The notes: generated by a model not told the origin, from the letters alone. Counted from the first letter of the stretch, positions 5,927 through 60,032 are shown. The stretch: 64,000 nucleotides of DNA from Naegleria gruberi (GCA_000004985.1 GG738850.1); one strand, 5' to 3'. Translations and numbers: made by a program.

Positions 5927-5997
5927 GGGGGCGAGGGGGAATCGAACCCCCGGCCACAGCTTTGGAGGCTGCGATGTTACCATTACACCACCGCCCC
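5927..5997 (-). tRNA. tRNA-Trp (anticodon CCA).
   Basis: Reverse complement 'GGGGCGG tg GTGT aatggta ACAT c GCAGC cuCCAaa GCTGT ggcc GGGGG ttcgatt CCCCC TCGCCCC c' folds as a cloverleaf. Acceptor stem 7 bp with one G-U. D-loop carries GG. Anticodon loop has U33 and CCA. T-loop is TTCGATT. Total 71 nt. Confidence 0.8.
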
Positions 5998-6331: not shown

Positions 6332-9300
6332 ATGCCAGAGGTTGTCACTATTGGTAGCACTACTGCTGCCAAACAGACAATGGGCTTCAATGTTTCATTG
6401 TTGGTAAGTTATGGCAACTGACATGTAATCCTTAATATTAAATTCTCTAATTCACTTCTTGATGTTTGCCTATTTGCATGCTCATTAGAAAGGAGGTACT
6501 ATTACTCAAACAATTGTAAGTTTCGAATAACAATTAAACTAAACATATCCTAAGGTTGGCGCAATCATCTCTGGTATGGTTATTGCTTCCACAGTTGCCA
6601 CCATCTTGATGGTTTCCTTGATTTCCTACCAAAATCCAATTGCTGTAGATGACACAGCATCCACCTACAAGAACGTTGCTCTTTCCATTAATGTTTTATC
6701 TAACGATTATGATCCAAAGGGAAATAACATTTCATTGGTTCAAGTTCTCGTGTCTCCAAGTTATGGTTCTGCTTCAATTTCCTCTAATAGTCTCATTGTC
6801 TACAAATCAAATGGTACTTATGCAGGAAATGACACTTTCAGTTATCAAATTACAAATGGTTACTTGACAGCTAATGCAACAGTTGTTGTGAGTGTGGTCA
6901 ATCGTCCTCCAGAAGCTATTCCAATTGCTGTAACTGTCAGTAAGAATGTACAAAACACGCTCATTAACATCTTCAGTTATGTTGGTGATAATGATGAGCA
7001 AATTAGTGATCCAGACAGTGTCGATATTCTCTCTGCTGTTTCTTACTCGAATCAAACTATTGTTAGTGGCACAGAAGGTGGTTACGGAACAATCAAGATT
7101 GATTCATATAATGGTTATTATTATAGTCCAGCAAGTGGTTTTAATGGCGTTGAGCAGTTTGTCTACACCATTTCTGATGGTTATGATACATCTAGTTCCA
7201 CTATTACTGTAACTGTGGCCAATGACGCTCCAACTGCTGTTGATGATTCTTACAAGATTCCAAAGTATGCATCATTGGTTTTGGATGTTTTGGCCAATGA
7301 CTATGATGTCAATGGTGACGATTTCAATATTACAAGTGCTTTGGGTACTGGCTATGGTGCTGTTAGTGTTTCTGAGAAGTCCATTACCTACATTACTGCT
7401 GGTTCTGTATCTACCAAATACACCGATTCATTCGAATATACAATTTCAGATGGAGTTGCCACTTCATCTGCCATTGTAATCATCTCAGTTTACAATCAAG
7501 TTCCTGTTGTCTATTCCAAGACTGTTACTGTTGCCAAGTCATCCACTAATAATTCAATTTCAATTGATTATTATGATGCTGATAGAAGAGATTTAGTCAC
7601 TGTTAGTACTATTTCTCCATCATTGTCCTCTATTTCACCAATTGCTTACTTGCAATTGACCACCAGTTACAATCAATTATTCTTTGATTGTTGTGAATGG
7701 CTCACTGTTGAAACTAACAACTATACCATTCTTTTCACTCCAACTACTGATACTGTTTACACTCAAACTTTCACAGTTGTCTTGTCAGATGGCGAAGGTA
7801 CTGGAACTGGCACAATCACCATCCAAGTGGTCAATACTCCACCTGTTGCTGTTGATGATTCTGCTCAATGTAATAAGAATCAACAAGTTTATGTCAATCT
7901 CGTTGCCAATGATTATGATGAAAACAGTGGAGACACTGCCAAGATCAAGTTGACTTCAACCGGTTGGAATTCAACTACACTCTATGGAGGTTCTTTAACT
8001 ATTTTCAATTCTACACATGCTCTCTATGTTGCTCCAAGTGGTTTCTTAGGAACTGACTCTGCCACCTATGTAATTACTGATCAAAGTGTTGATTCTAGTG
8101 GTAATGCTGATTCCACTTCATTCTCTTCTGGTAAACTCTATGTTACTGTTATTAATAATGCTCCAACTCCTGTTGATGATTCATTCACCATCTCAAAGGG
8201 TGTTACCTCTACTTTGAGTGTATTAGATAATGATACTGATCCAAACGATGGTTCTGGTTCAATTTACATTATCAATTCTGTTACTGCCTCTTCTGTTAAG
8301 AATATTCAAGCTTCTATTGTTGCAACAAGTGGTGCAAGAGATACATTGTCTTATGTTGCTTCCAATGCTGAATATACTGATTATTTGACATATGATGTCA
8401 AAGATCAAGATGGTATGAAATCTACTTACAAGGCCACTGTTACATTGTATGTTATCAATGATGCACCTGTTGCTGTTGATGATGCCTACTCCACTTTGTG
8501 GAATAGATCAGTGGACTGCTCTGTTAAAAGCAATGATTCTGATAAGAATGGTGATCTGGATGATTCTACCATTAGTATCACCACTTCTCCATCTCATGGT
8601 ACAGTAACCATTTTGAATAGTGTTGTAAGATATACTCCAACCAATGGCTACGTTGGTACTGATACCTTTGCTTACAAATTGAACGATGGTAGCTCATTGA
8701 ATGCTGACTCCAACATTGCAACTGTAACCATCACAGTTTACAATAATGCTCCAGTTACCGCTGATGATTATATCACTACTCACTGGAGAAACCCAAGTGG
8801 TGTATTGGTAACTCCATTGTCCAATGATAGTGATCCAGATGGTGATGATTTGATTGTTGAATCTACAACTGCTTCTTCCTCTGTTGGTACTGTCACTGTA
8901 GCTGATACCACAACCATCAAATTTGTCCCAACCACTACTTCAGCCACCACAGGAACCAAATCATTCACATACTATGCCTATGATTACAATAAGAAAACTC
9001 TAGGCACTGTCTATGTAAACATCACCAATACCAAGCCAACTGCCAATGGTGAATCTTATACTCTCCATTGGGCTGCTTCAGCTACTTCTTTCTCAGTTAT
9101 GGATAATGATGTTGATGCTGATAGTGATACTATCTCTTTATACTCTGTTAGTGGTAGTACTGCTGCTGCTATCAGTGGATCTTATATCAAGTATACTCCA
9201 AAGAAGGATGGTGTCACTGATTCATTCCAATACGTGATTACTGATACTGTTACTCCATCAAATGCTGCTACTGTTACAGTCAGTTTTACAAACAGCGATA

Positions 9301-12300
9301 CTCCAAGTGCTTCTAATGTTGCTACTTCAATCCATTGGAGAACTTTGGCTTCTCAATCTAATTATCAAGATTTCACTGTCATGAGTTCGACAACTGACGC
9401 TGATGGTGATTCTCTCACTTTGTCTGTTACTACAACTGCCTCTGGTTTGTCTGGATCTTCTTGTTCCAAGACCAGTGATTCTGTTCCAAAGGTGAGAACT
9501 ACTGCTCCAACCAAGACTGTTGGTACAGTTGCTTGTTCTTATTCAGTTTCTGATGGTTTGGCTTCTAGTGGAACCAAGACTGCAACATTGACCATTACAA
9601 ACAATGCTCCAACTTGTTCAAACATGACTGTTTCATTCAATCCAACCTATGTTTCAACTGGTCAAAACTATTCCATTTCCTCCTATGTCACAGATGCCGA
9701 TTCCAATGATATTCCATATTTGGTGCCAGGAAGTGCAACCATCGTTGGCTCTTCCTATTCTGGTGATTCATTCACTATAGTTGGAAGTTATTTGAACTTT
9801 AAACCAAACAGCAATCTTGGTACTCGTACCTATGCCTACACAGTCACCGATGGTTTGGCCACATCTTCTAAATGTTACATTTCCATAATTGTCAGCTCTC
9901 TTAGTAGCACTAATTATTACCAAAGTTATGATGTCCATTGGAATGCTTCTAATTATGAAGTTCCAATCTTGACAAACTTGCCAACTTCAACTATTAAGGC
10001 AATTGCTTCTCAATCTTACTCAACTGTCACTTTGTCAGGTGGAAAGATTTACTTTACACCATTGAGACAAATCTATGTTGATACCTTCACTGTAACTGTC
10101 ACTGATACTGGTGTTGATAGTCCAGTTTCTGTTACCATTACCACTTACAATAATGTGCCAACTGCCAGTCTCTCCACTCAAACTATTACTTGGGGAAGTT
10201 CAAAGACACTCGACTTGTTGACTAATTATGCTGATGATGACTATACTGCTGGTAGAGAAAGCAAGGGAACTGTCAAGAGCATTGATACTTCATCTACTTT
10301 AGGTAGTGTCTCTTCAGTTTCTGGAAGTTCAGTAACTTACACTTCTCCATCTAAATATGTTGGTTCTGATACCTTTAAGGTAACTGCAACTGATGGTTTG
10401 GCAACAGTTACTTTCACAGTAACATTCACCATGACCAATACTGCCCCAGTTACCAATACCAAGTACTTTAATGTTCACTGGGCTACTCACAAGACTGGTT
10501 ATCAAATGGATTTGAGTACTGGTGTAACTGATGCAGAAGGAAATACTTTGACTTACTCAGTTACTTCATCAAGTATTTCTCCAACAACTGCTGGTTCAGT
10601 TGCATTGTCTACTTCTCCATATGCTGTTGCTACTGCTTCCAGTACTGTCTATTTGGGTGCTTTCACATTCACTTATGGAGCTAGTGACTCAATTGTGTCA
10701 ACTCCAGGTACTGTTTCTGTTACTGTTTATAATAACATGTCAACTCCAGTAGCAAGTACAGGAAGTTGCCATTGGAAGCAAACTGGTGTTACTCTCAGTC
10801 CATTCTCTACTTTTGCTCCAACCTTAAAGGATGGTGATGGTGATAGCTTGTCGCTTGTTAGTGCATCAGCTCAAAAGGGGTCAGTTTCAGTTGCTACTTC
10901 AACAATTACTTATAACGCTCCTGGAACTTACGTTGGTACCGATGTTGTTACATACAAATTCACAGATGGTGCTCAATCACTTCAAAGTACTGACACAGTT
11001 GTCAATGTCAATGTTTACAACACTGCTCCAGTATGTGTTGACAAGACTGCCACAACTCTTTGGACTACAGCTGTAACAGTTGACTTGTCCAGTGGTGCTT
11101 GTACTGATGCTGATACCTTGGATACTGCTTACTTTAATGGAGCTACTTCAAGTGTTGTTGGTGGAAGCGTTTCAGTTTCTTCCAAGAAAGTTACCTATAC
11201 TCCATCTTCAACTTCTTTGACATTTAGTGGATCAAGTGGTTATTACACTGCTACTGGTTCATTCCAATTCCAATGTACTGATGGTATGTCAACTGCTGCC
11301 AGTGCTGGTAAGGCTACTATCACTGTATATAACAATGCTCCAACTGGTACTGGTAATACTGTATCAGTCAACCGTGATTACACTACCTCCACTTATGATT
11401 TCACATGGGCTACCATTGCTACTGCTACTGATGCTGATGGAGATTCCATTTCTTATACTAACTTTGCCTCATCTGACTCTACCATCACAGTTTCTAATAT
11501 TGGTACAGGAATCAGATTGACCACAAGTAACAAACTTGTTTCTGGAACCAAGTATATTACATTCAAACTCTATGATGGTCTCCATTACAGTACTTCAACC
11601 TTAACATTCACTGTAACTTTTGTCAATACAGCTCCAGCTTGTGTTGCTTCTTCAGTTGCATTGAATAAGAAGGGGACTGTTGATTTGTCAACCTTGTACA
11701 GTGCTACTGATGCCAACAGTGATCCAGTCACATATTCAGTTGTTTCTAGCTCAGTTTCAAGTACCTATGGTTCATTGTCTGGTACTACTTTCACTGCTTC
11801 TTCCACAACTAGTGGAAGTACAACTATTAGTTACACTGCCACAGATTCTCAAGCCACAACTACTTGTTCCATCTCGGTTGTGATTAGTAACCAAATTCCA
11901 GTTGCTGATGATATCACTTATCAAATTGTTCCAGTTTCAACCAATTATGTCCACAAATTCACATACACTGCAACAGATGGCGACTCTTCAGATACATTGA
12001 CCTATTCTCAATCAAGCACAACTTGTTCATCATCTTTGGTTACTGCTTTGAATATCACCACTGCTGGTCTTATTACCTTTGTTAGAAAGTCAACTGCAGT
12101 TAGTGGAACTTGTACAATGACTCTTTTGGTTGTTGATAACAACTCTCCAACTGCTGGACAAGATACTGCTGTTGTGACATTTGTCATTTCTTCATCGTCT
12201 CCCGCTGCCAATGATGACAGATTCTCAATTAACCAAGGTCAAACTATCAGAATTTACAATTGGCAAATCCTCCAAAACGATTATGATGAATTTGGCTCGA

Positions 12301-13468
12301 ATACCACTTTGACCTTGACATCTATTTCATGCCCAAGCTCCTCCTATTGTCACGAAACTCCTAGACAAGTTACAGTCAATGGATTAGATGCTATTGAACT
12401 CGATTCGGATACTTCCACTTGTCAAGCTGACTCATTCCAATACACCATGAAAACTTCTTTGGGAACCACCAAAACTGCTACTGTTTACGTTGAATTCAAG
12501 AATTGCTACTGTTCTGCCAAGATTGACTTCCTTTTCTTGCTTGATTCTTCTGGTTCAATTGGTTCCACCAACTTTAACAAGATGAGAAGTTTGGCAAAGA
12601 GTATTACAGGTAGAATGTCTATTTCTTCTTCTGCAATTATGGTTGCCATTGCTAAATTCCACTCAAATGGTACCTTGGCTTTGGCACTGTCTTCCGATGG
12701 TACTACCATTAATAATACCTTGACTAATATGGCCTATGAAGGTTAGTATTATTTTCTTTAAGGATTTCTAATTTGGTATCTAATATTATTGAACAGCTGG
12801 TAACACTGCAACTATTCCAGGTTTGAGAGTTGCTGTCGATGCTTTGAGACCTGCCAATGGTGGTAGAGCAGATGCTGATAAGGTTATTTTCAGTAAGTTT
12901 CTTAATTTCAGATAATCTAATTATATTCTAAATAGTTTTGACTGATGGTTTAGCAAACGTTCCTTGTTCATGTAGTTCTTGTGTTAGTGAATACCAGGCA
13001 AAACCTAGTGTCTTCTCAAACTCTATTCAAACTAACATTTTAGGAAAGTATACAGGTTCTGCACTTACAACCCAATTACAAAATCTTTGCAAATATCAAT
13101 ACACAGATTCGACCGTATTGAGTGGAACTACATGCAGCTACTGCTCCACTAGTAAGACAGCTTACTGTTTGCCATGTTCTGATGCAGTGCCAATTGCTGA
13201 AAAGATTAATACATGGCAACGTAATTCTACTGGAATAGTTCCATATGATTTGGATAATCCTTACAATGGAAATAATAATGTCCAATGGAAGATTGTTGCT
13301 ATGGCCGTAGGTGATGCCATGTCCAATACTTATGGTGCTAGACAAATTGAAGGAATGAACTATGATCCAAGTAGAGCTATGACTGTTTCTTGGACTGATT
13401 TGGATTCAACAATGAGCGAAATCGTTGATCAATCTTGTAATCAAGTTTCCACAAGTGACGCTAGTTAA
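6332..13468 (+). CDS. Giant (>2,200 aa) type-II/signal-anchored surface protein. It carries about 18 cadherin-like/VCBS-type ~100-aa repeats followed by a von Willebrand factor A (VWA) domain and a Cys-rich C-terminus. Five exons.
   Basis: Proposed structure: join(6332..6403, 6489..6515, 6555..12741, 12797..12892, 12936..13468). Every junction has GTAAGT/GTTAGT donors and ...AG acceptors, all in-frame. Two 5' micro-exons encode 'MPEVVTIGSTTAAKQTMGFNVSLL' and 'KGGTITQTI'. Repeats carry 'P(T/V)AVDDSY....VLANDYDxNGD'. VWA shows 'DFLFLLDSSGSIG' (MIDAS DxSxS). 'GNTATIPGLRVAVDAL' and 'ILTDG' are split by introns at 12742-12796 and 12893-12935. AATAAA lies about 55 nt past the stop. Confidence 0.7.
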
Positions 13469-15940: not shown

Positions 15941-18900
15941 CTGGTCTTTAGAATGGGCTGTCGTCATTATTATTCCAATATTCATGAAGCTGGTTCACTT
16001 AATTTTAACACTTGACTTTCCGAGTTTGTATTTATTAACAATTATTGCATACGATTGGAATGGACAGCTCACTTTATTAGGGCTTGTGCTTGCCTTACAT
16101 GAAAGGTGTGTTATTGTAAAGCAAGTGGACTTTCCATTATCCAATCGTTTAGTTTGATGATTCGTCTACAATTAGTCAATACGGTTCACCTTTCTTCCAG
16201 TTTATGATACCGCAACACGATCTATTTGGTGTGGTGACTACAAACAATACAAGATCTAGTGAAGAATACTGCACAATGTTGGTGCATAAATTGAGTGAAT
16301 GGAAGAGACACTTTATTTCTCACTTTGAAAAAAACAAACAATATGTATTACAACAAACATTGTAGTACAAGAGTAATTCTTTCATTAATTAGCACAATTT
16401 TATTGTGTGTATTGATTGAAAGTATTATTGTAGAAGGTCAATGTCCTCATCAACAAGTTGGTTTGGTCAATTTTAACACATTAACTGGTTGGAATGTTGC
16501 CAATTATGATATTGTTATTACAAAAGCTGTCAAGTTAAATATTTCTCCTCCAAACAAATTACGTTCAATCACTGTTAAATCAGGTGGTTCTTTAATTTTT
16601 GATAATATTGATCTCAATTTGAATTTGAATTTCATTAGAGTTGAATCAAATGGTAGTTTTATAATGGGTAGTTCAAATTGTCCAATCACTTCAAAGGTTA
16701 TCTTGACATTGTATGGTGATCGTGTCAATAGTTCTATCAATGATCTTGGTAGTGATCCATTCGATGGAAGTAAATTGGGTTCAAAAGGTGTTGCTTTCTT
16801 GAGTGGATCTATTGTTCAAATTTATGGTAAAGTTGATGGACCAAGTTGGAGTGAAATTATCAAGAATTCCACCAAGGGAAGTTCACAACTTGAATTGAAA
16901 GAAGCTGTTCAATGGAGAGTTGGTGATTCAATTGTTGTTGCTTCAACAGATTATGGTGAATTATATGATTATAGAGTTGAAAAGAATGCTTCATTGGGTT
17001 GGATTCGTGGTGAACCATTTCCAAATCAAAATGAAGAGAGAAAGATTATTCAATTATTGAATGGAAACAAGACCATTATTTTAGATAGAGCATTGAATTA
17101 TACTCACTTTGCAAGTGTTGATGGAAAGATTCGTGCAGAAGTTGGTTTATTGACAAGAAGAATTGTTTTCAGAGGTGATGATTCATCTGAAAGTTCACTT
17201 TTTGGTGGTCACTTTATTATTCGTTTGGTTGATAAATTTAATATGGAAGGTGTTGAAATTACAAGATTTGGTCAACAAGGTTTAATGGGAAGATATAGGT
17301 ATGTTTGGTGTTGGTAATCATTTTTATTTAACTTGTATTTAATATTGTTTTTAATGATTTATTTAACTATTACTTATTATTCATTAATAGTTTCCATTTC
17401 CACTTGTTACAAAACAAACCATTTGGATTGAATTTCACAGTTAAGGATAATACAGTTCATCACAGTTTCCAAAGATGTTATGTTGTTCACGATACTAATT
17501 ATATTTTATTGAAGAATAATGTTTGTTATCGTGCATTTGGTCATATGTACTTCTTGGAAGATGGATCTGAAGTAGGAAATGAATTTAACAATAATTTGGG
17601 AGTTGATCCAATTCCAATCTCAAGAGAAAATCCTCGTCAAATCATTTTATCTGATTCTGATGTTTCAGTTTTTTGGATTACTAATCCAAACAATACATTC
17701 ATTGGAAATCATGCAGTTGGTGGTCGTTTCCCATTTTGGTTTACAATGCCAACATTCCCAACTGGATTGAGTGCAAATAGATACGCAGCTGGCTCTATTA
17801 ATCCAAGAACTGCTCCTCCAAAACCATTCGAAAACAATGTTGGTCACAGTTCATCAGGAAATGCTCTTCACATTGATGATATGGAAAAAGCTGATGGAAG
17901 TACAGAACTTGCTGGTTATTTTCCTTCAGGTGTTGTTGAAGCACTTTACAATGGATTTATTGCTTATAAGAATAGAGGATATGGTGTTTGGGCACGTGGT
18001 GGTTTACTTCGTTTCAAAAATTTATTCTTAACTGATAATAGAATTGCCATGAATTCTCCACCAGGACCAAGTATCATTCATGACAGTACTTTTATTGGTG
18101 AATCTGAAAATGTTGGTGAATTTTCATACAGACCAAAGATTGATCTTGGAAATAGAACAAGACCAGGTCAATATGTTAGTTCCAATTTGGATTTGATTAA
18201 GGGTTATGAAACTTATGATAATGGTGGTCCACAATACTTGAGAAATATCACTTTTATCAACTTTGTTACTGATTCATTCAAATATGCAGGTTCCTTATCT
18301 TCATTGAATAATTACTTTAAACATCAATCCAAAAACAGATATGCCAATTTAAAGTTTGTTAATGCAAACAGATATATGGTTTTCCCTTGGAATTATCCAA
18401 CTTATTATGATAATCACAAGGCAACTGCTTTGATGGATGTGGACGGCTCAACCACAAGTATTTCATCAATTGGTGGTTGGATCACTGGTAATGACACAAC
18501 CATGACATTCACACAATGTCAAGCAAGAACTGAATGGAATGCCTATCAATGTCCATTCTTTGGTGAATCTTTTGCTCAATTCAGAGTTGTTAACTGGAAT
18601 TTAACAAGTGTTAACACAACTGGAAGTGATGGTATTAGTAGACCTGATATTATTAACACTGGCAAGAGAGTTCCAAGAATGATTCTTGTTGATTTATTGA
18701 GAAATCGTGAATCCAATGTTATTGGTGCATTAATTGGTGCTACTCAAGAATATTTCATGCAAAGTAACCTGATTGCAAGAGGTTTCTATGGGCTTCGTTG
18801 GCCATACGACATTCCAACACCAAAAGATTTGAGTTTCTTCCTTGATTCATGTGCATCAAATGATTGGATTGTTGTTTCTGTTCAATATCCAAAAGGAACA

Positions 18901-20283
18901 ATTTTCAACATTAGATTCTACATGAGTCCAACAACAATTAACATGACCAGAACTGCAAACTTTACAACCATGTTGAGTGAGCCGACCAAATATTATTATT
19001 ATGATGATGCCACTGAACATTTGTACTTGAAGATCCAAAATAATGCACCAAGATCCTGGTATAGAGTTGTTGATAGCTTTGTTGATTACTATTCAACTGG
19101 TGTTGTTTATTTGAATGCCACATGTCCGAGAGGTATTTGTGCACCATCAAAATTCTCCAATCCAAGCAATGCAGGAACAACATATAAGACATTAATGAGA
19201 GAAGATAGATTTGTTGGAAGATTGGAAACATGTCAACAAGCAAGTGTGAAATCATTGGCTGCCAATTCCACAAGTGGAAGTGGTTATGTTTTTGCATTCT
19301 TGAATTCCAAAACAGCTTCTCTTGATTTTACTGTTCAACACAATTTGAACGATATTGTTACATCAATTGATATTGGATTTGGACTTGCAGGAAAGGAAGA
19401 ATACATTTCCACACCAACCTCAAAGATTATTCCCTATACTCAAAGCAGATTTGGTTACACCTTGTCATATGAAGAGTGGAATTATTTACTCCAAGGTAAA
19501 ATGTTTGTGAAATTATCAACTACTCAAAATGCAAATGGACATTTGAGAGCTCAACTCTATATTAACAACGCTACATCAACAAGTTGTAATTTACCACCTT
19601 TGGTTTCAAATGTTAAACCGTGTGATGCTTTGAATTTGAAGAATTCTTCCCATGTTATTTCAATTTATAGTGAAGGTCCAAAATTGACAAATGAATGGTA
19701 CATGTATGCCTATGTTCCAGCTGATATTAGAAATACATTTGTTAATGCTAGTTATGCACCAGCTATTTGTGGAAACTCATCAATGCATTTTGGTTTCAGA
19801 AAGGGAAATATTTCATTCAACAAGATTGGTTCCAATAAGATTTATGTAGATACCAGTATTTATCAATACTTTGAATTCTTTATCAAGACTGTCAATAATA
19901 CTGGAAGTGTTCCAAGTTTGACAATTGTATTTGGTTATTTGAATGATACAAAGGTTGTTGACTTTTCTAGAATCAACACACAAGCTAATCACACTCAATA
20001 TTTAAAGATTGATGGAAATACAGTGACTCGTGTGAGAATTCCACTTTCTGAACTTGGTTTTGCACCAATTCAAAACATTCACAGAATTATCTTGTACTTG
20101 CCAGATCAAACTAATTTCATTGAATTCTTGATGGATAATATGAGATTTGTTGGAGCACCAGCAACAGCTGAAAGCACAGCAAGAACCATGACTGTTTCTC
20201 AATGTAAATACTTTGGTGGTGTTTCATCATGTGGAAGTTTGGTAAATCCAGATCCAGATCCATTAGGTATTAGAAAATTGTAA
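15941..20283. repeat. Inverted-repeat arm A (about 4.34 kb). Includes the promoter region and the whole G8-protein gene, and ends exactly at its stop codon.
   Basis: Reverse complement of 36910-41255 aligns along the full length. Coding part is about 97% identical; the 5' flank (15941-16340) is about 85-90%. Similarity stops at 'ctggtcttta' (15941) on the outside and immediately after the TAA (20283) on the inside. Confidence 0.9.
16343..20283 (+). CDS. Secreted G8-domain / parallel-beta-helix-like protein (CEMIP/TMEM2/PKHD1-like), copy 1. Two exons: join(16343..17313, 17391..20283).
   Basis: ATG at 16343 with signal peptide 'MYYNKHCSTRVILSLISTILLCVLIES'. G8-like glycine-spaced beta pattern 'SITVKSGGSLIFDNIDLNLNLNFIRVESNGSFIMG..ILTLYG'. 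77-nt intron GTAATC...AATAG joins in-frame to 'CFHFHLLQNKPFG...'. About 1,290 aa. AATAAA lies 6 nt after the stop. Confidence 0.7.
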
Positions 20284-32456: not shown

Positions 32457-32602
32457 ACAATAAAACAGGATTGTTTATTTTTACTTTCTCGAAGTAATAT
32501 GATTTTGATTCATTTAATCTTACATTTAGCACTATGATTTATAGTGTTAATGCTGATGCAGAACCTGTTCAAAATTGTAATTTAAATAATTTGAATGTGA
32601 AG

Positions 32603-32682
32603 TAGGGGTTCCCGAGTGGTCAAAGGGGGTAGACTCAAGTTCTACTGCGCAAGCTTCGTGGGTTCAAATCCCACCTTCTGCA
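32603..32682 (+). tRNA. tRNA-Leu (anticodon CAA), class II with long variable arm.
   Basis: 'GTAGGGG tt CCC GAGTGGTCAAAG GGG GTAGA CTCAAGT TCTAC tgcgcaagcttc GTGGG TTCAAAT CCCAC CTTCTGC a'. Closely parallels eukaryotic tRNA-Leu(CAA) ('GCCGAGTGGTCTAAGG...GACTCAAGTTCTGG...GTGGGTTCGAATCCCAC'). Acceptor stem has three G-U pairs. Confidence 0.8.
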
Positions 32683-36909: not shown

Positions 36910-39900
36910 TTACAACTTTCTAATACCTAATGGATCTGGATCTGGATTTACCAAACTTCCGCACGATGAAACACCACCAAAGTATTTACATTGAGAAACA
37001 GTCATGGTTCTTACTCTGGTTTCAGCTGTTGCTGGTGCTCCAACAAATCTCATATTATCCATCAAGAATTCAATGAAATTAGTTTGATCTGGCAAGTACA
37101 AGATAATTCTGTGAATGTTTTGAATTGGTGCAAAACCAAGTTCAGAAAGTGGAATTCTCACACGAGTCACTGTATTTCCATCAATCTTTAAATATTGAGT
37201 GTGATTAGCTTGTGTAGTGATCTTGGAAAAGTCAACAACCTTTGTAACATTCAAATAACCAAATACAATTGTCAAACTTGGAACACTTCCAGTATTATTG
37301 ACAGTCTTGATAAAGAATTCAAAATATTGATAAATACTGGTATCTACATAAATCTTATTGGAACCAATCTTGTTGAATGAAATATTTCCCTTTCTGAAAC
37401 CAAAATGCATTGATGAGTTTCCACAAATAGCTGGTGCATAACTAGCATTAACAAATGTATTTCTAATATCAGCTGGAACATAGGCATACATGGACCATTC
37501 ATTGGTCAATTTTGGACCTTCACTATAAATTGAAATAACATGGGAAGAATTCTTCAAATTTAAAGCATCACACGGTTTAACATTTGAAACCAAAGGTGGT
37601 AAATTACAACTTGTTGATGTAGCATTGTTAATATAGAGTTGAGCTCTCAAATGTCCATTTGGATTTTGAGTAGTTGATAATTTCACAAACATTTTACCTT
37701 GGAGTAAATAATTCCATTCATCATATGATAAGGCATATCCAAATCTGCTTTGAGTATATGGAATAATCTTTGAGGTTGGTGTGGCAATATAATCTTCCTT
37801 TCCTGCAAGTCCAAATCCAATATCAATTGATGTGACAATAGCATTCAAATTGTGTTGAACAGTAAAATCAAGAGAAGCTGTTTTGGAATTCAAGAATGCA
37901 AAAACGTAACCACCTCCACTTGTTGAATTGGCAGCCAATGATTTCACACTTGCTTGTTGGCATGTTTCCAATCTTCCAACAAATCTATCTTCTCTCATTA
38001 ATGTCTTATATGTTGTTCCTGCATTGCTTGGATTGGAGAATTTTGATGGTGCACAAATACCTCTTGGACATGTGGCATTCAAATAAACAACACCATATGA
38101 GTAGTAATCAACAAAGCTATCAACAACTCTGTATGATGTTCTAGAAGCTTGATTTTGGATCTTCAAGTACAAATGTTCAGTAGCATCATCATAATAGTAG
38201 TAATTCTTAGGTTCACTCAACATGGTTGTAAAGTTTGCAGTTCTGGTCATGTTAATTGTTGTTGGATTCATGAAGAATCTAATGTTGAAAATTGTTCCTT
38301 TTGGATATTGAACAGCAACAACAATCCAATCATTTGCAGCGCTTGCATCAAGGAAGAAACTCAAATCTTTTGGTGTTGGAATGTCGTATGGCCAACGAAG
38401 CCCATAGAAACCTCTTGCTACCAAATTACTTTGCATATAAAAGTCACCACTGGAGCTTAATGCACCAATAACATTGGATTGGCGATTTCTCAATAAATCA
38501 ACAAGAATCATTCTTGGAACTCTCTTTCCTGAATTGATAATATCAGGTCTACTAATACCATCACTTCCAGTTGTGTTAACACTTGTTAAATTCCAATTCA
38601 AAACACGGAATTGAGCAAAAGATTCACCAAAGAATGGACATTGATAGGCATTCCATTCAGTTCTTGCTTGACATTGTGTGAATGTCATGGTTGTGTCATT
38701 ACCAGTAATCCAACCACCAATTGATGAAATACTTGTGATTGAGCCGTCTACATCCATCAAAGCAGTGGCCTTGTGATTCTCATAATAAGTTGGATGATTC
38801 CAAGGGAAAACCATATATCTGTTTGCATTAACAAACTTTAAATTGGCATATCTATTTCTGGATTGATGTTTAAAGTAATTATTCAATGAAGATAAGGAAC
38901 CTGCATATTTGAATGAATCAGTAACAAAGTTAATAAAAGTGATATTTCTCAAATATTGTGGACCACCATTATCATAAGTTTCATAACCCTTAATCAAATC
39001 CAAATTGGAACTAATATATTGACCTGGTCTTGTTCTATTTCCAAGATCAATCTTTGGTCTGTATGAAAATTCACCAACATTTTCAGATTCACCAATAAAA
39101 GTACTATCATGAATGATACTTGGTCCTGGTGGAGAATTCATGGCAATTCTATTATCAGTTAAGAATAAATTTTTGAAACGAAGTAAACCACCACGTGCCC
39201 AAACACCATATCCTCTATTCTTATAAGCAATAAATCCATTGTAAAGTGCTTCAACAACACCTGAAGGATAATAACCAGCAAGTTCTGTACTTCCATCAGC
39301 TTTTTCCATATCATCAATGTGAAGAGCATTTCCTGATGAACTGTGACCAACATTGTTTTCAAATGGTTTTGGAGGAGCAGTTCTTGGATTAATAGAGCCA
39401 GCTGCGTATCTGTTTGCACTCAATCCAGTTGGGAATGTTGGCATTGTAAACCAAAATGGGAAACGACCACCAACTGCATGATTTCCAATGAATGTATTAT
39501 TTGGATTAGTAATCCAAAAAACTGAAACATCAGAATCAGATAAAATGATTTGACGAGGATTTTCTCTTGAGATTGGAATTGGATCAACTCCCAAATTATT
39601 GTTAAATTCATTTCCTACTTCAGATCCATCTTCCAAGAAGTACATATGACCAAAAGCACGATAACAAACATTATTCTTCAATAAAATATAATTAGTATCG
39701 TGAACAACATAACATCTTTGGAAACTGTGATGAACTGTATTATCCTTAACTGTGAAATTCAATCCAAATGGTTTGTTTTGTAACAAGTGGAAATGGAAAC
39801 TATTAATGAATAATAAGTAATAGTTAAATAAATCATTAAAAACAATATTAAATACAAGTTAAATAAAAATGATTACCAACACCAAACATACCTATATCTT

Positions 39901-40847
39901 CCCATTAAACCTTGTTGACCAAATCTTGTAATTTCAACACCTTCCATATTAAATTTATCAACCAAACGAATAATAAAGTGACCACCAAAAAGTGAACTTT
40001 CAGATGAATCATCACCTCTGAAAACAATTCTTCTTGTTAATAAACCAACTTCTGCACGAATCTTTCCATCAACACTTGCAAAGTGAGTATAATTCAATGC
40101 TCTATCTAAAATAATGGTCTTGTTTCCATTCAATAATTGAATAATCTTTCTCTCTTCATTTTGATTTGGAAATCGTTCACCACGAATCCAACCCAATGAA
40201 GCATTCTTTTCAACTCTGTAATCATATAATTCACCATAATCTGTTGAAGCAATAACAATTGAATCACCAACTCTCCATTGAACAGCTTCTTTCAATTCAA
40301 GTTGTGAACTTCCTTTGGTGGAATTCTTGATAATTTCACTCCAACTTGGACCATCAACTTTACCATAAATTTGAACAATAGATCCACTCAAAAAAGCAAC
40401 ACCTTTAGAACCCAATTTACTTCCATCGAATGGATCACTACCAATGTCATTGATAGAACTATTGACACGATCACCATACAATGTCAAGATAACTTTTGAA
40501 GTGATTGGACAATTTGAACTACCCATAATAAAACTACCATTTGATTCAACTCTAATGAAATTCAAATTCAAATTGAGATCAATATTATCAAAAATTAAAG
40601 AACCACCTGATTTAACAGTGATTGAACGTAATTTGTTTGGAGGAGAAATATTTAACTTGACAGCTTTTGTAATAACAATATCATAATTGGCAACATTCCA
40701 ACCAGTTAATGTGTTAAAATTGACCAAACCAACTTGTTGATGAGGACATTGACCTTCCACAATAATACTTTCAATCAATACACACAATAAAATTGTGCTA
40801 ATTAATGAAAGAATTACTCTTGTACTACAATGTTTGTTGTAATACAT
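36910..40847 (-). CDS. Secreted G8-domain / beta-helix-like protein, copy 2: complement(join(36910..39799, 39877..40847)).
   Basis: Paralog of the 16343..20283 gene. Same signal peptide, same intron position and sequence. ATG at 40847..40845. Coordinates derived by symmetry with copy 1. Confidence 0.7.
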
Positions 40848-41255
40848 ATTGTTTGTTTTTTTCAAAGTGAGAAATAAAGTGTCTCTTCCATTCACTCAAT
40901 TTATGCACCTAACCATCTTGGTTGTGTATTATTCCTCAAATCACAACAGAACGTGTTGTTTGTGGTCCCTTCACCAAATACATGAAATTTGAAGATACTG
41001 AAAGGTGAACCATATTGTATAATTGAAGACGAATCATCAAACTAAACGATTGGATAATGGATGTGCACTTGCTTTACAACAACACATCTTTCATTTTAGG
41101 TGTACCCAAGCCCTAATAAAGTGAGCTGTCCATTCCAATTGTAAGCTGCAATAATTGTAAATAAAACTAAAGACGGAAAGTCAAGTGTTAAAATCAAGTC
41201 AACCAGCTTCATGAATATTGGAATAATAATGACGACAGCCCATTCTAAAGACCAG
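36910..41255. repeat. Inverted-repeat arm B (about 4.35 kb), the reverse-complement copy of 15941-20283.
   Basis: See arm A. The 77-nt intron is 100% identical between copies. Exons differ at about 2-3% of nucleotides, giving about 3% amino-acid substitutions (e.g. 'ALIGATQEYFMQ' versus 'ALSSSGDFYMQ'). Confidence 0.9.
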
Positions 41256-53548: not shown

Positions 53549-56500
53549 TTAAATAACGAACAAAATACAACCCAAAACAAAAATTAACACTGCTTTCGTA
53601 ACATTGCAAGAGGTAGCTGCCAATGAAACTGTTGGTATGATAATCTTTGGTAATTCAACAGTAACTCTTTCAATTGAAGTTCCATCGGCTGCAAATGTGG
53701 AAATTGAAGCAACTGGTGTTGAGCTAGTTCCAGAATTAACCTTAACTTTCATTGTGATGGTGTAACTTGCTGGTGAGAGAGTTTGACCGAGAGTTGCATT
53801 CAATTTGTTGGAGGCATCAACATTCATTGAAGTAAATTGAATGACAATACCTTTTGAATCTGTTATAATGAAATTATCTGAAAGTGCACGTTTACTTTCA
53901 GATGTAAGTGTGAATGCTGCAGGAAGTGACATGACCAATGAACCTCCCATTGGAATTGGCTTTGTAATCACCATGGCTGTCTTGACACTCACCATTCCAC
54001 CAACAGGAACATAGGCAGTAGTACTTGTTTGTGGAGTAACAGGATTAATTGGATTGGTAGAATTATTGTTTGTAGAATTTGTGTTGGAGGTGTTATTGGC
54101 AATGGTTGAATTGTTGGTGGATGTACCATTGTTAACTACTGGATTAGTGGATGAATTAGTGGAATTGTTTCCATTATTGTTAATGACATTGTTGTTTGGA
54201 TTTGTGGAATTTGAATTGGTAGTATTGGAAGTGGATGTGTTGTTTCCATTCATTGAATTATTTCCACCAGAATCTGTTGTATTAGTTGTTGATGTATTAT
54301 TTGTTACAATAGAACTGTTACTATTTGTGGAGGAATTATCAACATTTGTACCATTACTAATAATTGAGTTATTTCCACTTGTTGTATTATCAACATTAGT
54401 ATTGTTACCATTGTTAACATTTGTATTATTACTGGCATTGGTATTATTGCTAGATGTAGTAGAATTGTCTACATTTGTGCTATTATTTCCATTGTTAACG
54501 TTAGTATTGTTATTGATGTTAGTGTTATTGCTGTTAGTAGTAGAATTATCAATATTTGTATTGTTATTATTATTAACATTAGTATTATTACTATTTGTGG
54601 AGGAATTATCCACATTAGTATTATTATTATTAGCATTGGTAGAATTATCAAAGTTAGTGTTATTATTACTACTACTTGTTGAATTATCAACATTAGTAGC
54701 ATTATTATTAAGACCTGGATCAGTATTATTATTCGAAGGAGAATCATTGACTGAAGATACAGTAAAAGTACCAGTGCTCTTAACAGTTAATATATAACTA
54801 CCACTGGATTGATCTTGTGTTGCAGTGCAGGTATCATCTGCAACATAATCACCAACAGAATCGTCCCATTTCAAACATTGATAAGTGGTTGTTGAAATTG
54901 TTCTCAATCCACGCAATTTTCTTGTAGAGCTACTGATTGAGGAATCAATTTGTAACTCGGCAATGCTTTCGGTATGATTCACATTCAATGCTTGATTCAA
55001 GTGTGAAATGACAAATTCAACAGCATTGGCCAATGCCTTGGAACAATTTGGTTTGAAAACATTAAGAGTAATATCAACTGAATCAGTAACATTGGACAAA
55101 GTTTGTAATAGATTGAACTTTTCACTCAATTTGAAACCATTTTTACCAGATATAGTTTCATTCAATCCATTTAAGAACGACTTGGTAACCTTTCTTCCGT
55201 AGGCCTTAACATCCTTATTAAGTAAAATAGTGGCTGGCATATCTGGAACCTTTTGATTTGAAGCAATATTGACCAATGAAGTATAAACTTGTTTAAGTTT
55301 TTCAGTTGGTTTCTCAGTTTTCAATTTTGAAGGTAAAATAGATCTGACACTTGAAGTAGTAAACAAAGTATCAGCTACTTGTTGAGTTTGTGTAAGAGTT
55401 TCATCAGATACTGGAATTGAACTATCCAGAGCTGTTGTTGTAGTTGAAATTAAAGTATCAGCAATTAAATTTGAAGTGTTTGATGACATCATGTCCATAT
55501 TTTCAGTTGCAATATCCAAAATAGTTGCTGTTGAAGCAACAAGAGATTCGGTTGGACTAGTAATAGATGCTTCTTGTTGAGTATTATTCAACATGGTGTT
55601 AATAACTGAATCAGCAACTTGAGCCAATTCTTGTTGAACCGTTTCACTGTCATTTGATTGAGAGTAATTAGCATTGGCAATGGATTGAATTAAAGCAGCA
55701 CCATCTGAAACTGGAATATTACTTTGATCAGCAATAGCATTTGCAGTTGCAACAGTTTCGTCCAAAGTTGCCTCGGTAACATTTACAGTTGTAATGGCAC
55801 TCGAAGAAGCACCCATTGCATCATAGACAGTTACTGATACTTCATTCACACCTACGATACCCAACTTTAATGAATAGAAACTAGTCTCAGAACGTGACGA
55901 AACAATGGTCCTTACTGAATTGGAATTTGGACCTCTTGTACTAAATTCATAAGTTAATGGAAGTTGCGCATCAGTCCAACCATTACCACATGAAACCTTA
56001 AAATCTGTCAATAGGGAAACACCAGAGCTTGGCTCAACGAGTAATTCACCAACTGTTGGTGGTGAGTTCACAGTGAAGAACACTTCAGCAGTACCTTCTT
56101 TATCGATAGTTGTGTTTCCAATAATAACAGTATCCTTAATGGTAATCTTCATTTCATTGGAGCTACCTGGAGTTAATAATTTTGATGGAATGATAATGTA
56201 TGCCTTTGTTACTTCCACACCAGTTAAATCAATCGATGAAGATTCCCATAAGAATGATTTGGAATCACTGAGTACAACTGGTTGAATTAACAATGCTCTC
56301 AAAACCAAATCCTTTGATGGATTGACAACTGATAAATCAACGCCGTCCATAGGCATAATTGACGAGGTAATAACAGTGTCCTTTGAAATTTCCAAAACGG
56401 TAACCTTAAGAGAATCAGTAGCAGTTCTGTTTTGCTTTCTATAAGTAACAGTGAAAAGATAGGAACCAGGATCCATTAATTGACTCATTTTCATGGTATT

Positions 56501-59500
56501 TGTAATATCGAGTGGGAATGAACCATTTGTACAAACGTCACCACTGTCCAAATCAAGACAGTCAATTGCAATGGATTGTACCTCATTGGTTTTTGATGGA
56601 TCTTGAGCAATAACTGAGAGTGAAACTGGATCTTCCATCGATTGAATTACATCTCTCAATGTAAATGCTACTTTCAATGCTGCAGAGGAAGCAGTTACTT
56701 TAAATGGCAAAGAAACATCTTGAACTCCGTCTTGTCTTGCAGTGAGCATGAAATAATATTCACCTTCCATTGGAAGAACAGTTCTTCCAGGACCAATAAT
56801 TAATCTTCCATCCTCAACAATGAAATTAGTAATGTTAGTAACACTGCTATAATCACTATTCATAGAGTAAATGAATTTAACACGACCTCTTCCCTTATTG
56901 CAAGCTCTATTGGAATAGGAAATGACTGGTGTAATGATGTTTAATAATCCCAAAGTATTAGAAATTGAAACTCCTTCCTTAATTGACAAATTAGGAATAG
57001 AATCTTCACTGACAACAAAGGAAATTGTTTGAGTTGAAGTAATTTCTGGAGCCAATGGACTACTGACAGTAACTTGAATAGAATAAGTTCCATTACTCAT
57101 ATTATTAGTATCCAAGATTAAATTTGGTTTGTTGAAAGTGGAAATCAAAGAGCTGAGGGTTAAAGAATCATCGGTGGTTGGTGCAGAAACAACTTGCCAT
57201 GCGAATTTCAATGGTCTTCTATCGAATGATTGAGAATTGGCAGCACTAATGAACAACTTATCGCATCCACGTGACACAACTGATTTTTCAACGTTGATTT
57301 GTGCTTCAGGTGATTGTGGTTTGAAGGATCCTTGCTTGATGGTTATGGAAATAGATTCAGATGATTGTGGATAAACGCTTAATGATAAATTTTGACCAAT
57401 TGAAATAGATGAACTATATCCAAGGATAATAGTTAATTTAGATTCACCATTCAACATACACATTGCTCCCTTTCCAATAAAATCAATTGAATCTGGTCTA
57501 ATTAAATCTTGACATGGAATAATTGACTTGATAGTGGAATAAACAGTACCATAGACTATATCAGCCTTTTCAGATAATTCAAAGTTATCAACAACGCTGA
57601 AATCACATTTGCTTCCATACCATCCTTGGGCACATTGTGAACAATTTGCACCAATTGAGTGACCTGAACATTTACAAGTACCATCATTCAAACAAATTCC
57701 TCTATTAGAACATGTCAATGCAGGAGAACATTGAATTTCACAATCAACACCAACAAATCCATTTGCACATGATTGACAGAAAGGTCCAGTAAATCTCTCT
57801 TCACATAAACATTTCAATTGTTGAGTACAATTACCACGATTATTACAAGTGTCTGAACTACAACGTGGAGTTTTACATTCTTCCCCATTGAAGGAAGGTA
57901 AACAGGTTGAACAATAAGTGGAATTATCATAATTACCATAGCAAACACATTGATCCTTAGCAATACATTTTCCTTTTTTGGAGCAGACATTAGAATCATA
58001 TCTTCCAACTCCATTACAAGTAAAAGTAGCACAATTTGGACCAGTATATCCATCAGTACATGCACATGTATTAGGTTGTGTACAAATGCCTCTTCCACCA
58101 CATACATTCTTATCATTAGCAGGCAATTGACCACAAATTGGAATTTTACAATCAACACCAGTATATCCATCCTTACAATTGGAACATGATTGGCCTTCAA
58201 AGTTACCAGTACATGTGCATTTGCCTTCCATTGAACATTTACCACGGAACGAACAACCACCTTGAGTTTCAGTTCTTCCATTACATGTTGGAATATCACA
58301 CATTTCACCTGAAAATCTTTCTTTACAGATACAATTGTCTGGTCCAATACATTTACCATTTCCAGAACACACTGATGGATCAGTGGATGCTTTTTGGAAA
58401 CAAACTAAGCTTTGACATCTATCTCCTGTATATCCTTGATTACAAATGCATGTATCTGTACTACCACATTTGCCACGACCTGAACATGCAAGTGGATTTT
58501 CTGAAGGTAAGCCAAAACATTTAATAGCTTGAGTGGAATTGGCTGAGAAACAATCATTGGTGGAATTCAGTGTTGAACAATAATCGGTAGCCATGTTAGA
58601 AGATAATCCCATTTCACTTGTTACAATATTCTTACAAGCATTGTTACACAATGGTTGAGATAAAACATTGGTTGAATTGATTGAACAAGATTTGAATGTT
58701 TTCAAACAGGATACTCTTAAAAGACCCTTTTTGCATGAATCTCCACAATTCTTGTATCCAACACTGTCAAGTAATTCAGAATTCTTCTTGTAAAGTGTTG
58801 TAATTTTTGTGGAAACTGACAAGGCCATTTTAGATTGAAAATCTGCTGGACTTGTTGAAATCACTTGACTCATTAAATCATCAGTGCTAATCATGTAATT
58901 AACATGATCAGAACATCCACTTAGTAAAGTCTTTGGAGGAATGATACATTGAGCAGCAGGTTTAAAATATTGACAATCTGTACCATAATAATTAGATGGA
59001 CAAATTCTTTGACAAGTTGTTGAATCATCAGACAATTGGAAACCTTCTGCACAATCAGTACATGGTCTATTGTTTCCCAATGTAGTATAACCCTTAGTAC
59101 AAGTACAATAAGGAGTATAGGCAGATGAATAAGAACATGTACCATTTCCACAACCTTGCTTTCCACAATTTGGAACCTTTGTAATACATATTCCATTAGC
59201 ATATATTAAATTATCAGAGCATTTCAAACAAAGTGGATACACCATTCCTTCGATAGCACATTTATCACAACTTGCACCACTATATTTGGTATTAGAGCAA
59301 GCTGAGCATGGAGCTGACATATTCACAGTCATGTAGCCAGTATTACAGACACATTGAGCAGTTGAGAGTGTAACTGCTTTACAAGCACCATTTCCACAAT
59401 TAGGTGTTGGACACACTGGTAATTTTACATATGGTCTATCTAATACATTTGGTTTAGGTGAATAATTACAAACAATCAAGGTAGCTCCATTCAATTCTGG

Positions 59501-60032
59501 CTTGTTGAACACTTTTGCACAGGTAGCTCTGGAACACCCGACTTTGGTGGAAGCTGCTGAGACAACTTGAATATAATGTTGGCAATCACCACTCTTTAAA
59601 CATAAGCTTCCTTAATTGTAAATCATAAACACTTACAGAACAATAATTATTTGTAAAGTCATATTTAGAAGATTCTAAAGTCCATTCATTCACAATATCC
59701 ACCACTGACATATTTCCCTTCATACTGACATGAATATTTACGCCCAAATTGAGAGAATTACTTGATGGTCCTGCAGCACATTTAGTAAGCCAAGAAGCTG
59801 CCCTAGATGCCAATTCATCACTCCATTCCAAGGCTGCTAACTTGTTAAGTGGAGTCGGAGCCACTGATAAACGTGCGGAATTGTGGGCATTCAAAATGGC
59901 TGTCTTTTCTGAAGAAGTTAATTCCGCAGCCCTTACTTGTTGTTGTTGATTCATCATCAACATGGATACAACCAAAAGCATCACCAACACAAGGCTAACT
60001 TTGTGATGATGGTGCGGATAAATGATGTTCAT
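53549..60032 (-). CDS. Giant (about 2,150 aa) secreted/anchored surface protein. Signal peptide, CAP (SCP/PR-1) domain, long array of EGF-like Cys repeats, REJ/PKD-like middle region, N/S/T-rich mucin-like region, C-terminal hydrophobic anchor. complement(join(53549..59593, 59637..60032)).
   Basis: Exon 1: 'MNIIYPHHHHKVSLVLVMLLVVSMLMM' is the signal peptide. CAP motifs 'AILNAHNSARL..LEWSDELASRAASWLTKC', '..NEWTLESSKYDFTNNYCS'. A 43-nt GTAAGT...AAAG intron, then in-frame 'SGDCQHYIQVVSAASTKVGCSRATC..LIVCNYSPKPN' (GHYTQVVW...GC...C...CNY.P.GN). Then dozens of 'CxCxxGYTGxxC'-type EGF modules. C-terminus 'VLIFVLGCILFVI'. Confidence 0.75.
54060..54730. repeat. Degenerate tandem low-complexity coding repeats (N/T/S-rich 'NNTNVDNS(T)' units) inside the giant surface-protein gene.
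   Basis: Repeated 'aatgttgataattc...' and 'attgttaat...' units. Protein shows 'NNNTNVDNSST NSNNTNVNNNNNTNIDNSTT...'. Confidence 0.6.

Follow-up and report, generated by a model that had tools for sequence, protein, structure and literature searches.

Bacterial fibrillar adhesins of the tandem-95 or Big_9/cadherin-like type (NF012211; PF17963, PF17803, PF17892), among them RTX-type adhesins and proteins with Rhizobium RapA2-like domains, follow a 'stalk plus distal binding head' design, in which Ig-like sandwiches with a period of about 95 residues and acidic motifs of the Ca2+ type form a long unbroken stalk array. The same repeat family, as judged by hidden Markov model (HMM) scores, and the same design were found in a gene of Naegleria gruberi, located in a 64,000-nucleotide stretch of DNA (GCA_000004985.1 GG738850.1, hereafter the window) and encoding a protein of 2304 residues. 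The gene structure and domain content, five exons that specify an N-terminal tail, a transmembrane (TM) anchor, 20 tandem repeats and a C-terminal VWA domain, are in our judgement near certain. We infer from them a probable function: a rod-like adhesin or receptor, anchored in the cell surface as a type II protein, would bind substrate or prey and carry its VWA head at the membrane-distal end.

Several features set the Naegleria protein apart from its bacterial counterparts. Its gene is eukaryotic, with spliceosomal introns; its anchor consists of an N-terminal TM helix and a tail motif, instead of the type I secretion system (T1SS)/RTX, LPXTG, gliding-motility or PEP-CTERM modules of the bacterial proteins; and its C-terminal head is a VWA domain with a Cys-rich insertion, found only in eukaryotic relatives among those examined. 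The RTX nonapeptide (PF00353) gave no match in the Pfam scan, and the protein ends in a VWA domain, unlike adhesins of the LapA or MpIBP RTX/T1SS type.

Among amoebae, SibA of Dictyostelium is a single-pass receptor with a membrane-distal VWA domain, which mediates adhesion to substrate and particles via talin (PMC9197732, PMC12686525, PMC3279395). Like SibA to SibE, the Naegleria protein is predicted to be an amoeba surface protein with a single TM segment and an extracellular, membrane-distal VWA domain, separated by a long repeat region. The polarity is however reversed: SibA is a type I protein whose C-terminal cytosolic tail carries talin-binding NPxY motifs, whereas the Naegleria protein has its tail at the N-terminus (MPEVVTIGSTTAAKQTMGFNVSLLKGGTITQTI) and its VWA domain at the C-terminus, and the tail has no NPxY but a conserved motif of its own. 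No Dictyostelium protein was found among the best 120 matches of a search with exon 3. The Sib repeats were reportedly described as 'bacterial-like' by Cornillon and colleagues in 2006. We regard the two proteins as analogues with a plausibly similar role, and not as demonstrated homologues.

The closest solved folds to the head are those of apicomplexan TRAP and MIC2, animal integrin I domains and ANTXR (Foldseek E values of about 1e-9 to 1e-8), all of which are adhesive or ligand-binding. Identity to these is only 12-17%, and the Naegleria domain differs from them by an insertion of about 110 residues and by its place at the C-terminus of a 20-domain stalk.

Stalk, head and anchor of the predicted protein

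The stalk is encoded at 6630..12521 of the (+) strand (residues 59-2022) and consists of 20 tandem Ig-like repeats, contiguous units of 84 to 113 residues that were delimited by an HMM iterated on the protein itself; an initial annotation of this DNA had counted about 18. That annotation had described a bacterial-style array and suggested a Pfam/HMM scan, which returned scores far above cutoff for Big_9 (3e-124, 14 stretches, 406.6 bits, cutoff 23.6), Cadherin_4 (3e-88, 10 stretches, 291 bits, cutoff 25.1) and Cadherin_5 (2e-42, 7 stretches, 143.7 bits, cutoff 26.5), as well as for the NCBIfam tandem-95 repeat NF012211 (259.2 bits, cutoff 90). The label 'VCBS/cadherin-like' therefore stands for the bacterial-type cadherin-like families, and not in its strict sense: VCBS itself (PF13517/TIGR01965) was absent from the Pfam (E<=0.01) and NCBIfam (E<=0.001) hits of the protein, and the classical extracellular cadherin (EC) profile PF00028 had no match in the Pfam scan. 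'VCBS repeat-containing protein' is a loose JGI label carried by homologues only.

The signature 'PxAVDD...NDxDxxGD', initially ascribed to all consecutive repeats, stands out in repeats 1, 3, 5-8 and 20, while repeats 9-19 have it in degenerate form. Across the repeats, two Asp columns and the terminal Asn are at least 90% conserved, and we consider that the acidic motifs may bind Ca2+. Pairwise identity among the 20 units averages 25% (range 11-37%), adjacent units being no closer (27%). Orthologous positions in different species are about 52% identical, well above the likeness of repeats within the protein, which indicates that the array is old and that its units evolve independently of one another. 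Since Tandem Repeats Finder reported no DNA-level array, we reject a recent duplication of the repeats as well as their concerted evolution, which the initial annotation had raised as a point to check.

Repeat 7 was modelled with AlphaFold2 (AF2), using the other 19 repeats as the alignment, and gave a seven-strand Ig-like sandwich (predicted local distance difference test, pLDDT, 94.9). Its nearest solved fold in Foldseek was an Ig-like decoration domain of Agrobacterium phage Milano, with a template modelling score of 0.78; other near folds were dystroglycan cadherin-like domains, SraP modules and EC domains of cadherins, protocadherins and desmogleins. When a profile of the 20 repeats was run against the PDB, one 'RTX protein' was found (E = 2e-6) and protocadherin-9 matched weakly (E = 0.06), while a phmmer search of the PDB with 624 residues of repeats gave no match. 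The repeat module may plausibly have come from bacteria.

The VWA domain (12525..13447, (+), residues ~2024-2297) directly follows the array and is spread over exons 3 to 5. Pfam VWA (PF00092) matched at 62.3 bits (cutoff 23.8; 9e-17) over profile positions 1-117 of 174, the coverage being partial because of the Cys-rich insertion; VWA_2 was also among the Pfam matches. The metal-ion-dependent adhesion site (MIDAS), DxSxS...T...D, is complete, with D2030, S2032 and S2034 in exon 3, T2099 in exon 4 and D2131 in exon 5, in agreement with the earlier statement that two short introns interrupt the VWA motifs. In an alignment of the last 290 residues of the adhesin with 17 relatives, D2030, S2034, T2099 and D2131 (module positions D16, S20, T85 and D117) are invariant and S2032 (S18) is at least 90% conserved; ten Cys of the module are invariant or nearly so.

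After the 'TDG' strand, the fold is interrupted by a Cys-rich, mostly helical insertion of about 110 residues (12947..13285, (+), residues ~2132-2244). Seven Cys positions within it are invariant or at least 90% conserved, and three more (2017, 2019 and 2295) flank the domain. The AF2 model of the module from the N. lovaniensis orthologue was one compact domain (pLDDT 88.2; predicted template modelling score, pTM, 0.89), in which the segments past the Cys-rich part (WKIVAMAVG... and ...VSW.DL....IVDQSC) complete the VWA sheet. Foldseek aligned this model over its full length on single VWA domains, with a template modelling score of 0.8 on the target for VWF A3; further neighbours were T. gondii MIC2, P. 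gingivalis Mfa5, mussel PTMP1, ANTXR2, the I domains of integrin alpha-X and alpha-M and Plasmodium TRAP, and collagen VI is also among them. The Cys-rich part, first taken for a separate tail, is thus an insert within a single VWA fold, which the far C-terminus completes by supplying the last strands and helices.

The N-terminal tail of 33 residues is hydrophilic and encoded by two micro-exons. These had been thought to encode a signal anchor; they do encode the N-terminus, but it is exon 3 that begins with the hydrophobic anchor itself, a predicted single TM helix (VGAIISGMVIASTVATILMVSLI, residues 34-56; 6555..6623, (+)). This helix contains the sole strongly hydrophobic 19-mer of the protein (Kyte-Doolittle 2.2) and is conserved in all relatives. 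An N-terminus with 33 hydrophilic residues ahead of the hydrophobic segment exceeds the length of a typical cleaved signal peptide but suits a type II signal anchor. Beyond the anchor, Ser and Thr make up 30% of the residues and there are 30 Cys and 25 N-x-S/T sequons, which is consistent with an extracellular glycoprotein, and the C-terminus is hydrophilic and of extracellular type. From these features we favour a type II (N-in, C-out) single-pass surface topology.

Directly before the TM helix, all family members have the motif N-[FLV]-S-L-[LMIV]-K-x-G-[TP]-x-x-Q-x-[IVL], which in the adhesin corresponds to residues 19-33 (6386-6403 and 6489-6515) and includes an N-x-S sequon. The carriers compared were P0017, P0021, P0022, P0024, P0038, P0040, P0041 and P0046. 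The motif matched no Pfam family. It was also considered as a classical [DE]xxxL[LI] dileucine signal, a reading that was rejected as there is no acidic residue at -4.

Proposed role as a surface adhesin

The arrangement we propose is the following. A 33-residue cytoplasmic tail with the family motif N-x-S-L-L-K-G-G-T-x-x-Q-T would lead into the TM signal anchor, and from there a long extracellular stalk of 20 divergent bacterial-type tandem-95 domains, in which Ca2+ at the acidic DxD/NDxD and xDG motifs probably adds stiffness, would carry the VWA domain, which with its complete MIDAS and its disulfide-rich helical insertion is the likely ligand-binding head at the membrane-distal end. Such a fibrillar adhesin or receptor would hold a metal-ion-dependent domain tens of nanometres off the amoeba surface, with substrate, extracellular material and bacterial prey as candidate targets. 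Membrane topology, Ca2+ binding, adhesive function and ligand are the elements of this picture that we infer.

Four points weigh against it. The topology is read from hydrophobicity and composition only, and the positive-inside signal is weak (K14 and K25 versus E3). The degeneracy of the canonical Ca2+ motif in repeats 9-19 makes rigidity along the whole stalk uncertain. The head was modelled on the orthologous N. lovaniensis segment, 66% identical in the module, and not on the N. gruberi sequence. Finally, a search of the literature found no expression, localisation or binding data for the adhesin or its orthologues.

The composition of the stalk bears on the main alternative, according to which the protein would be a structural component of the surface coat, glycocalyx or cyst wall, or a shed or secreted matrix protein, with a heavily glycosylated Ser/Thr-rich stalk and a VWA domain that self-assembles as in collagen VI, matrilins and mussel PTMP1. 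The 30% Ser+Thr and the 26 sequons would suit such a role, the matrix proteins PTMP1 and collagen VI are among the structural neighbours of the head, and vWFA proteins are among the extracellular matrix candidates of Acrasis. We nevertheless consider this unlikely, as the conserved N-terminal tail and TM helix argue for stable membrane anchoring, and an intact MIDAS is more typical of ligand-binding VWA domains than of purely structural ones.

The initial annotation had proposed instead a cell-cell adhesion molecule, and homotypic cadherin-like contacts between amoebae could be imagined from the cadherin-like fold and the acidic Ca2+-type motifs, all the more as the heterolobosean Acrasis is aggregative. 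We found no supporting evidence. N. gruberi lives as a solitary amoeboflagellate for which multicellular stages are not known, so that binding to substrate or prey is no less likely. The family is moreover retained in strictly solitary Naegleria species, PF00028 gave no match in the Pfam scan, and the protein bears at its distal end a VWA head in place of an EC1-type strand-swap domain. Homotypic adhesion therefore seems to us rather improbable.

Gene model and public annotation

The coding sequence of the adhesin comprises 6915 nt in five exons, that is 2304 codons and a stop, from the ATG at 6332 to the TAA at 13466-13468, and has zero internal stops. Exon 1 (6332..6403, (+), 72 nt) encodes residues 1-24 (MPEVVTIGSTTAAKQTMGFNVSLL), the start of the N-terminal tail, of which 17 are identical in the N. 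lovaniensis orthologue P0009, and ends at a GTAAGT donor at position 6404. Intron 1 (6404..6488, (+), 85 nt, GTAAGT...TAG) has a position specific to N. gruberi. It is followed by a micro-exon of 27 nt, exon 2 (6489..6515, (+)), whose nonapeptide KGGTITQTI (residues 25-33) is identical at 9/9 positions in orthologues P0009 and P0010, at 8/9 in P0013 and at 7/9 in P0011; it is also identical at 9/9 positions in the Willaertia protein P0017, and the motif recurs in distant family members. Intron 2 (6516..6554, (+), 39 nt, GTAAGT...AAG) has a position common, within 1 nt, to N. lovaniensis and N. fowleri, and its acceptor is the sole AG in the open stretch 6543-6576 upstream of the large open reading frame (ORF).

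Exon 3 (6555..12741, (+), 6187 nt) is this single uninterrupted ORF, as had been noted for a central exon of about 6.2 kb. It encodes residues 34-2095 plus one base, from the TM anchor through all 20 repeats into the VWA domain, of which it contains the first third. Retention of intron 3 (12742..12796, (+), 55 nt, GTTAGT...CAG) leads to an immediate in-frame TAG after 'AYEG', while its removal restores 'AYEAGNTATIPGL', colinear with the orthologues. Exon 4 (12797..12892, (+), 96 nt, residues 2096-2127) is separated by intron 4 (12893..12935, (+), 43 nt, GTAAGT...TAG) from exon 5 (12936..13468, (+), 533 nt), which encodes residues 2128-2304 and the TAA stop. Removal of intron 4 restores 'KVIFILTDGLANVPC', again colinear with the orthologues, and a metagenomic relative (P0001) is colinear across both 3' junctions. 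The introns have a G+C content of 19-32%, versus about 37-40% in the large exon.

As only the N. gruberi intron after residue 33 shares its position with the orthologues, positional conservation cannot be used to check them, and the protein-level evidence is decisive. The spliced N-terminus, MPEVVTIGSTTAAKQTMGFNVSLL|KGGTITQTI|VGAIISG..., matches the orthologue N-terminus MPENITLGSTTAARQVVGFNLSLLKGGTITQTIVGGIITS..., orthologue N-termini reading 'MPExITLGSTTAARQVVGFNLSLLKGGTITQTIVGG...'. In a global alignment with four orthologues, identity was 51-53.5% over ~2280 columns and all four N. gruberi junctions were free of gaps. We conclude from these comparisons that the five-exon, 2304-residue model, with both micro-exons at the exact coordinates first predicted, is the structure of the gene.

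The initial annotation had also warned that the gene is easy to miss, and the public model bears this out: XP_002681407 (EFC48663, NAEGRDRAFT_46423, UniProt D2V3M4), of 1343 residues instead of 2304, misses the micro-exons and splices out about 920 coding residues. Exact block mapping of this protein, from which the layout of the GenBank model was reconstructed, showed that it consists of residues 41-714, 1539-1617, 1679-2127 and 2165-2304 of the corrected protein. Its start is an internal Met (6576) within the hydrophobic anchor, so that the conserved N-terminal tail is lost with both micro-exons. In-frame repeat sequence amounting to 824 + 61 residues (715-1538 and 1618-1678) is treated as 'introns', with the loss of at least nine repeats, and a wrong 3' acceptor deletes residues 2128-2164, including the MIDAS Asp of the 'ILTDG' strand.

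Were this 1343-residue model correct, translation would start at 6576, 8598-11069, 11307-11489 and part of exon 5 would be introns, and the product would be shorter and possibly secreted. The model is present in NCBI and UniProt, its internal 'introns' bear GT...AG ends, and Met41 with the hydrophobic stretch after it could be mistaken for a signal peptide. Yet the reading frame stays open through these 'introns', whose repeats are homologous to the remainder, four orthologues and several metagenomic relatives retain all 20 repeats and the 33-residue N-terminal tail, and the 3' junction loses an Asp that is invariant across the family. We therefore give this model very little credence: the public annotation of the gene is wrong, and the five-exon model is better. 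An N. gruberi paralogue on another scaffold, XP_002672355 (P0015), is annotated with 1515 residues compared to ~2300 for its relatives and is without the KGGTITQTI segment; it is probably mis-modelled in the same manner.

Distribution of the family and its meaning for Heterolobosea

Relatives were found by protein search with the exon-3 ORF, the best 120 matches being listed. A word-indexed protein search with the C-terminal 392 residues returned two metagenomic fragments only and missed Naegleria proteins identical or 66% identical in that part, so that its negatives are not evidence of absence. N. lovaniensis has two orthologues, C9374_008469 (2314 aa) and C9374_006824 (2315 aa), as does N. 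fowleri, FDP41_006209 (2312 aa) and FDP41_010565 (2309 aa). All four are annotated 'VWFA domain-containing protein', share the architecture of the N. gruberi adhesin and are colinear with it throughout. In N. lovaniensis (L001 6001-13360) and N. fowleri (L002 6001-13369), introns follow residues 11 and 33; in the VWA region, N. fowleri has one intron (after residue 2152) and N. lovaniensis none. The N. gruberi introns follow residues 24, 33, 2095 and 2127, only the one after residue 33 being common to all three species, which points to intron turnover within Naegleria. The genes that surround the orthologues in N. lovaniensis and N. fowleri do not keep the order seen in the window, so that synteny gives no support either way.

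The plan of tail motif, TM helix, tandem-95 repeats and Cys-insert VWA domain recurs in Willaertia magna (3559 aa), in N. gruberi paralogues (XP_002672355 and a 2816-aa protein), in one EukProt entry and in several metagenomic proteins. The longer Naegleria and Willaertia paralogues (P0016, P0017, P0018 and P0046, 2816-3559 aa) extend past the VWA domain. Two of them, P0016 and P0018, have a precomputed C-type lectin match (PF00059), and P0017 and P0046 have similar-looking C-terminal sequences without this match, which suggests that there may be sub-families with different binding heads. The 131-kb contig of one metagenomic member, P0024, also encodes a cullin, PARG, APC3 and kinases; the cullin is closest to those of Acrasis (68%), Willaertia (67%) and Naegleria (63-64%), so that the contig comes from an uncultured heterolobosean. 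All family members that could be placed taxonomically belong to Heterolobosea.

Outside the eukaryotes, the best relatives are giant repeat proteins of bacteria, 26-31% identical over most of the query, one of which (P0019) lies on a contig with GGDEF, EAL and HAMP genes. None of the bacterial giants examined has the Cys-insert VWA module, and the tail motif was seen only in eukaryotic relatives among those examined. A profile search with the VWA module in 1.84 billion representatives was dominated by generic multi-VWA matrix proteins, which makes any count of family members rough; only 14 full-length single-stretch matches were present among the best 150, and the module is thus not common.

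The literature searched neither mentions the locus tags nor describes this family in Naegleria, and a Naegleria pangenome paper merely counts VWA-containing genes (PMC9928731). In Vermamoeba, a highly expressed gene has a bacterial tandem-95 protein as its best match (PMC7125106), hence similar modules exist in other amoebae. We see in it an uncharacterised heterolobosean family of adhesin-like proteins that combines known domain types; repeat proteins of bacterial type and VWA adhesins have already been described in other amoebae.

The window is gene-dense, with a G+C content of 29-40%. Four of its intron-free ORFs exactly match RefSeq proteins of Naegleria gruberi NEG-M that are encoded on a 707,703-bp scaffold, among them a ferrochelatase (XP_002681413, 41832-43274) and an S28 carboxypeptidase (XP_002681417, 61081-62667). 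Its typical eukaryotic genes encode RNI-type leucine-rich repeat, F-box, REJ/EGF, CEMIP-like and S28 peptidase proteins. On the opposite strand, 335 nt upstream of the adhesin ATG, there is a gene for tRNA-Trp(CCA) (5927-5997, (-)), and a tRNA-Leu(CAA) gene is located at 32602-32682 (+). Two further observations were made in the window. An inverted duplication of ~4 kb (16281-20283 and 36910-40909), with arms 95-98% identical and 16.6 kb between their inner ends, carries in each arm an ORF of 340 residues and one of ~959 residues with CEMIP beta-helix and CEMIP_X domains. A second giant ORF, of 1987 residues (53549-59512, (-)), combines a REJ domain with teneurin-type EGF repeats and is a candidate polycystin-1-like surface protein.

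That the adhesin locus is bacterial contamination, or a very recent and non-functional bacterial insertion, might be thought from its Pfam 'bacterial' repeat families and its bacterial giant relatives, including the one on a bacterial contig, but is effectively refuted by the four spliceosomal introns, a base composition that fits the host, the flanking eukaryotic genes and tRNAs, the orthologues and paralogues in three Naegleria species, Willaertia and an uncultured heterolobosean, and the restriction of tail motif and Cys-insert VWA domain to eukaryotes among the relatives examined.

The corrected 2304-residue model should replace XP_002681407 / D2V3M4. In evolutionary terms, the gene would be a case of a eukaryote taking over an adhesin module of bacterial type, and its introns are placed differently in sister species. 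The attachment of Naegleria to surfaces, to prey and, in the case of N. fowleri, to host tissue is poorly understood, and the family provides testable receptor candidates with a defined head. We know of no canonical integrin machinery that has been functionally characterised in Naegleria. A tentative and more speculative idea is that Heterolobosea have their own family of giant adhesion receptors, in which a bacterial-type tandem-95 stalk was combined with a eukaryote-specific tail motif and anchor and a Cys-stabilised MIDAS VWA head. If this were so, an 'integrin-like' solution to amoeboid adhesion would have been assembled independently for a third time, after metazoan integrins and the Sib proteins of Dictyostelium, the conserved tail NxSLLKGGTxxQT would be a new motif for coupling to the cytoskeleton or to trafficking, and the N. 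fowleri orthologues could be host-attachment factors.

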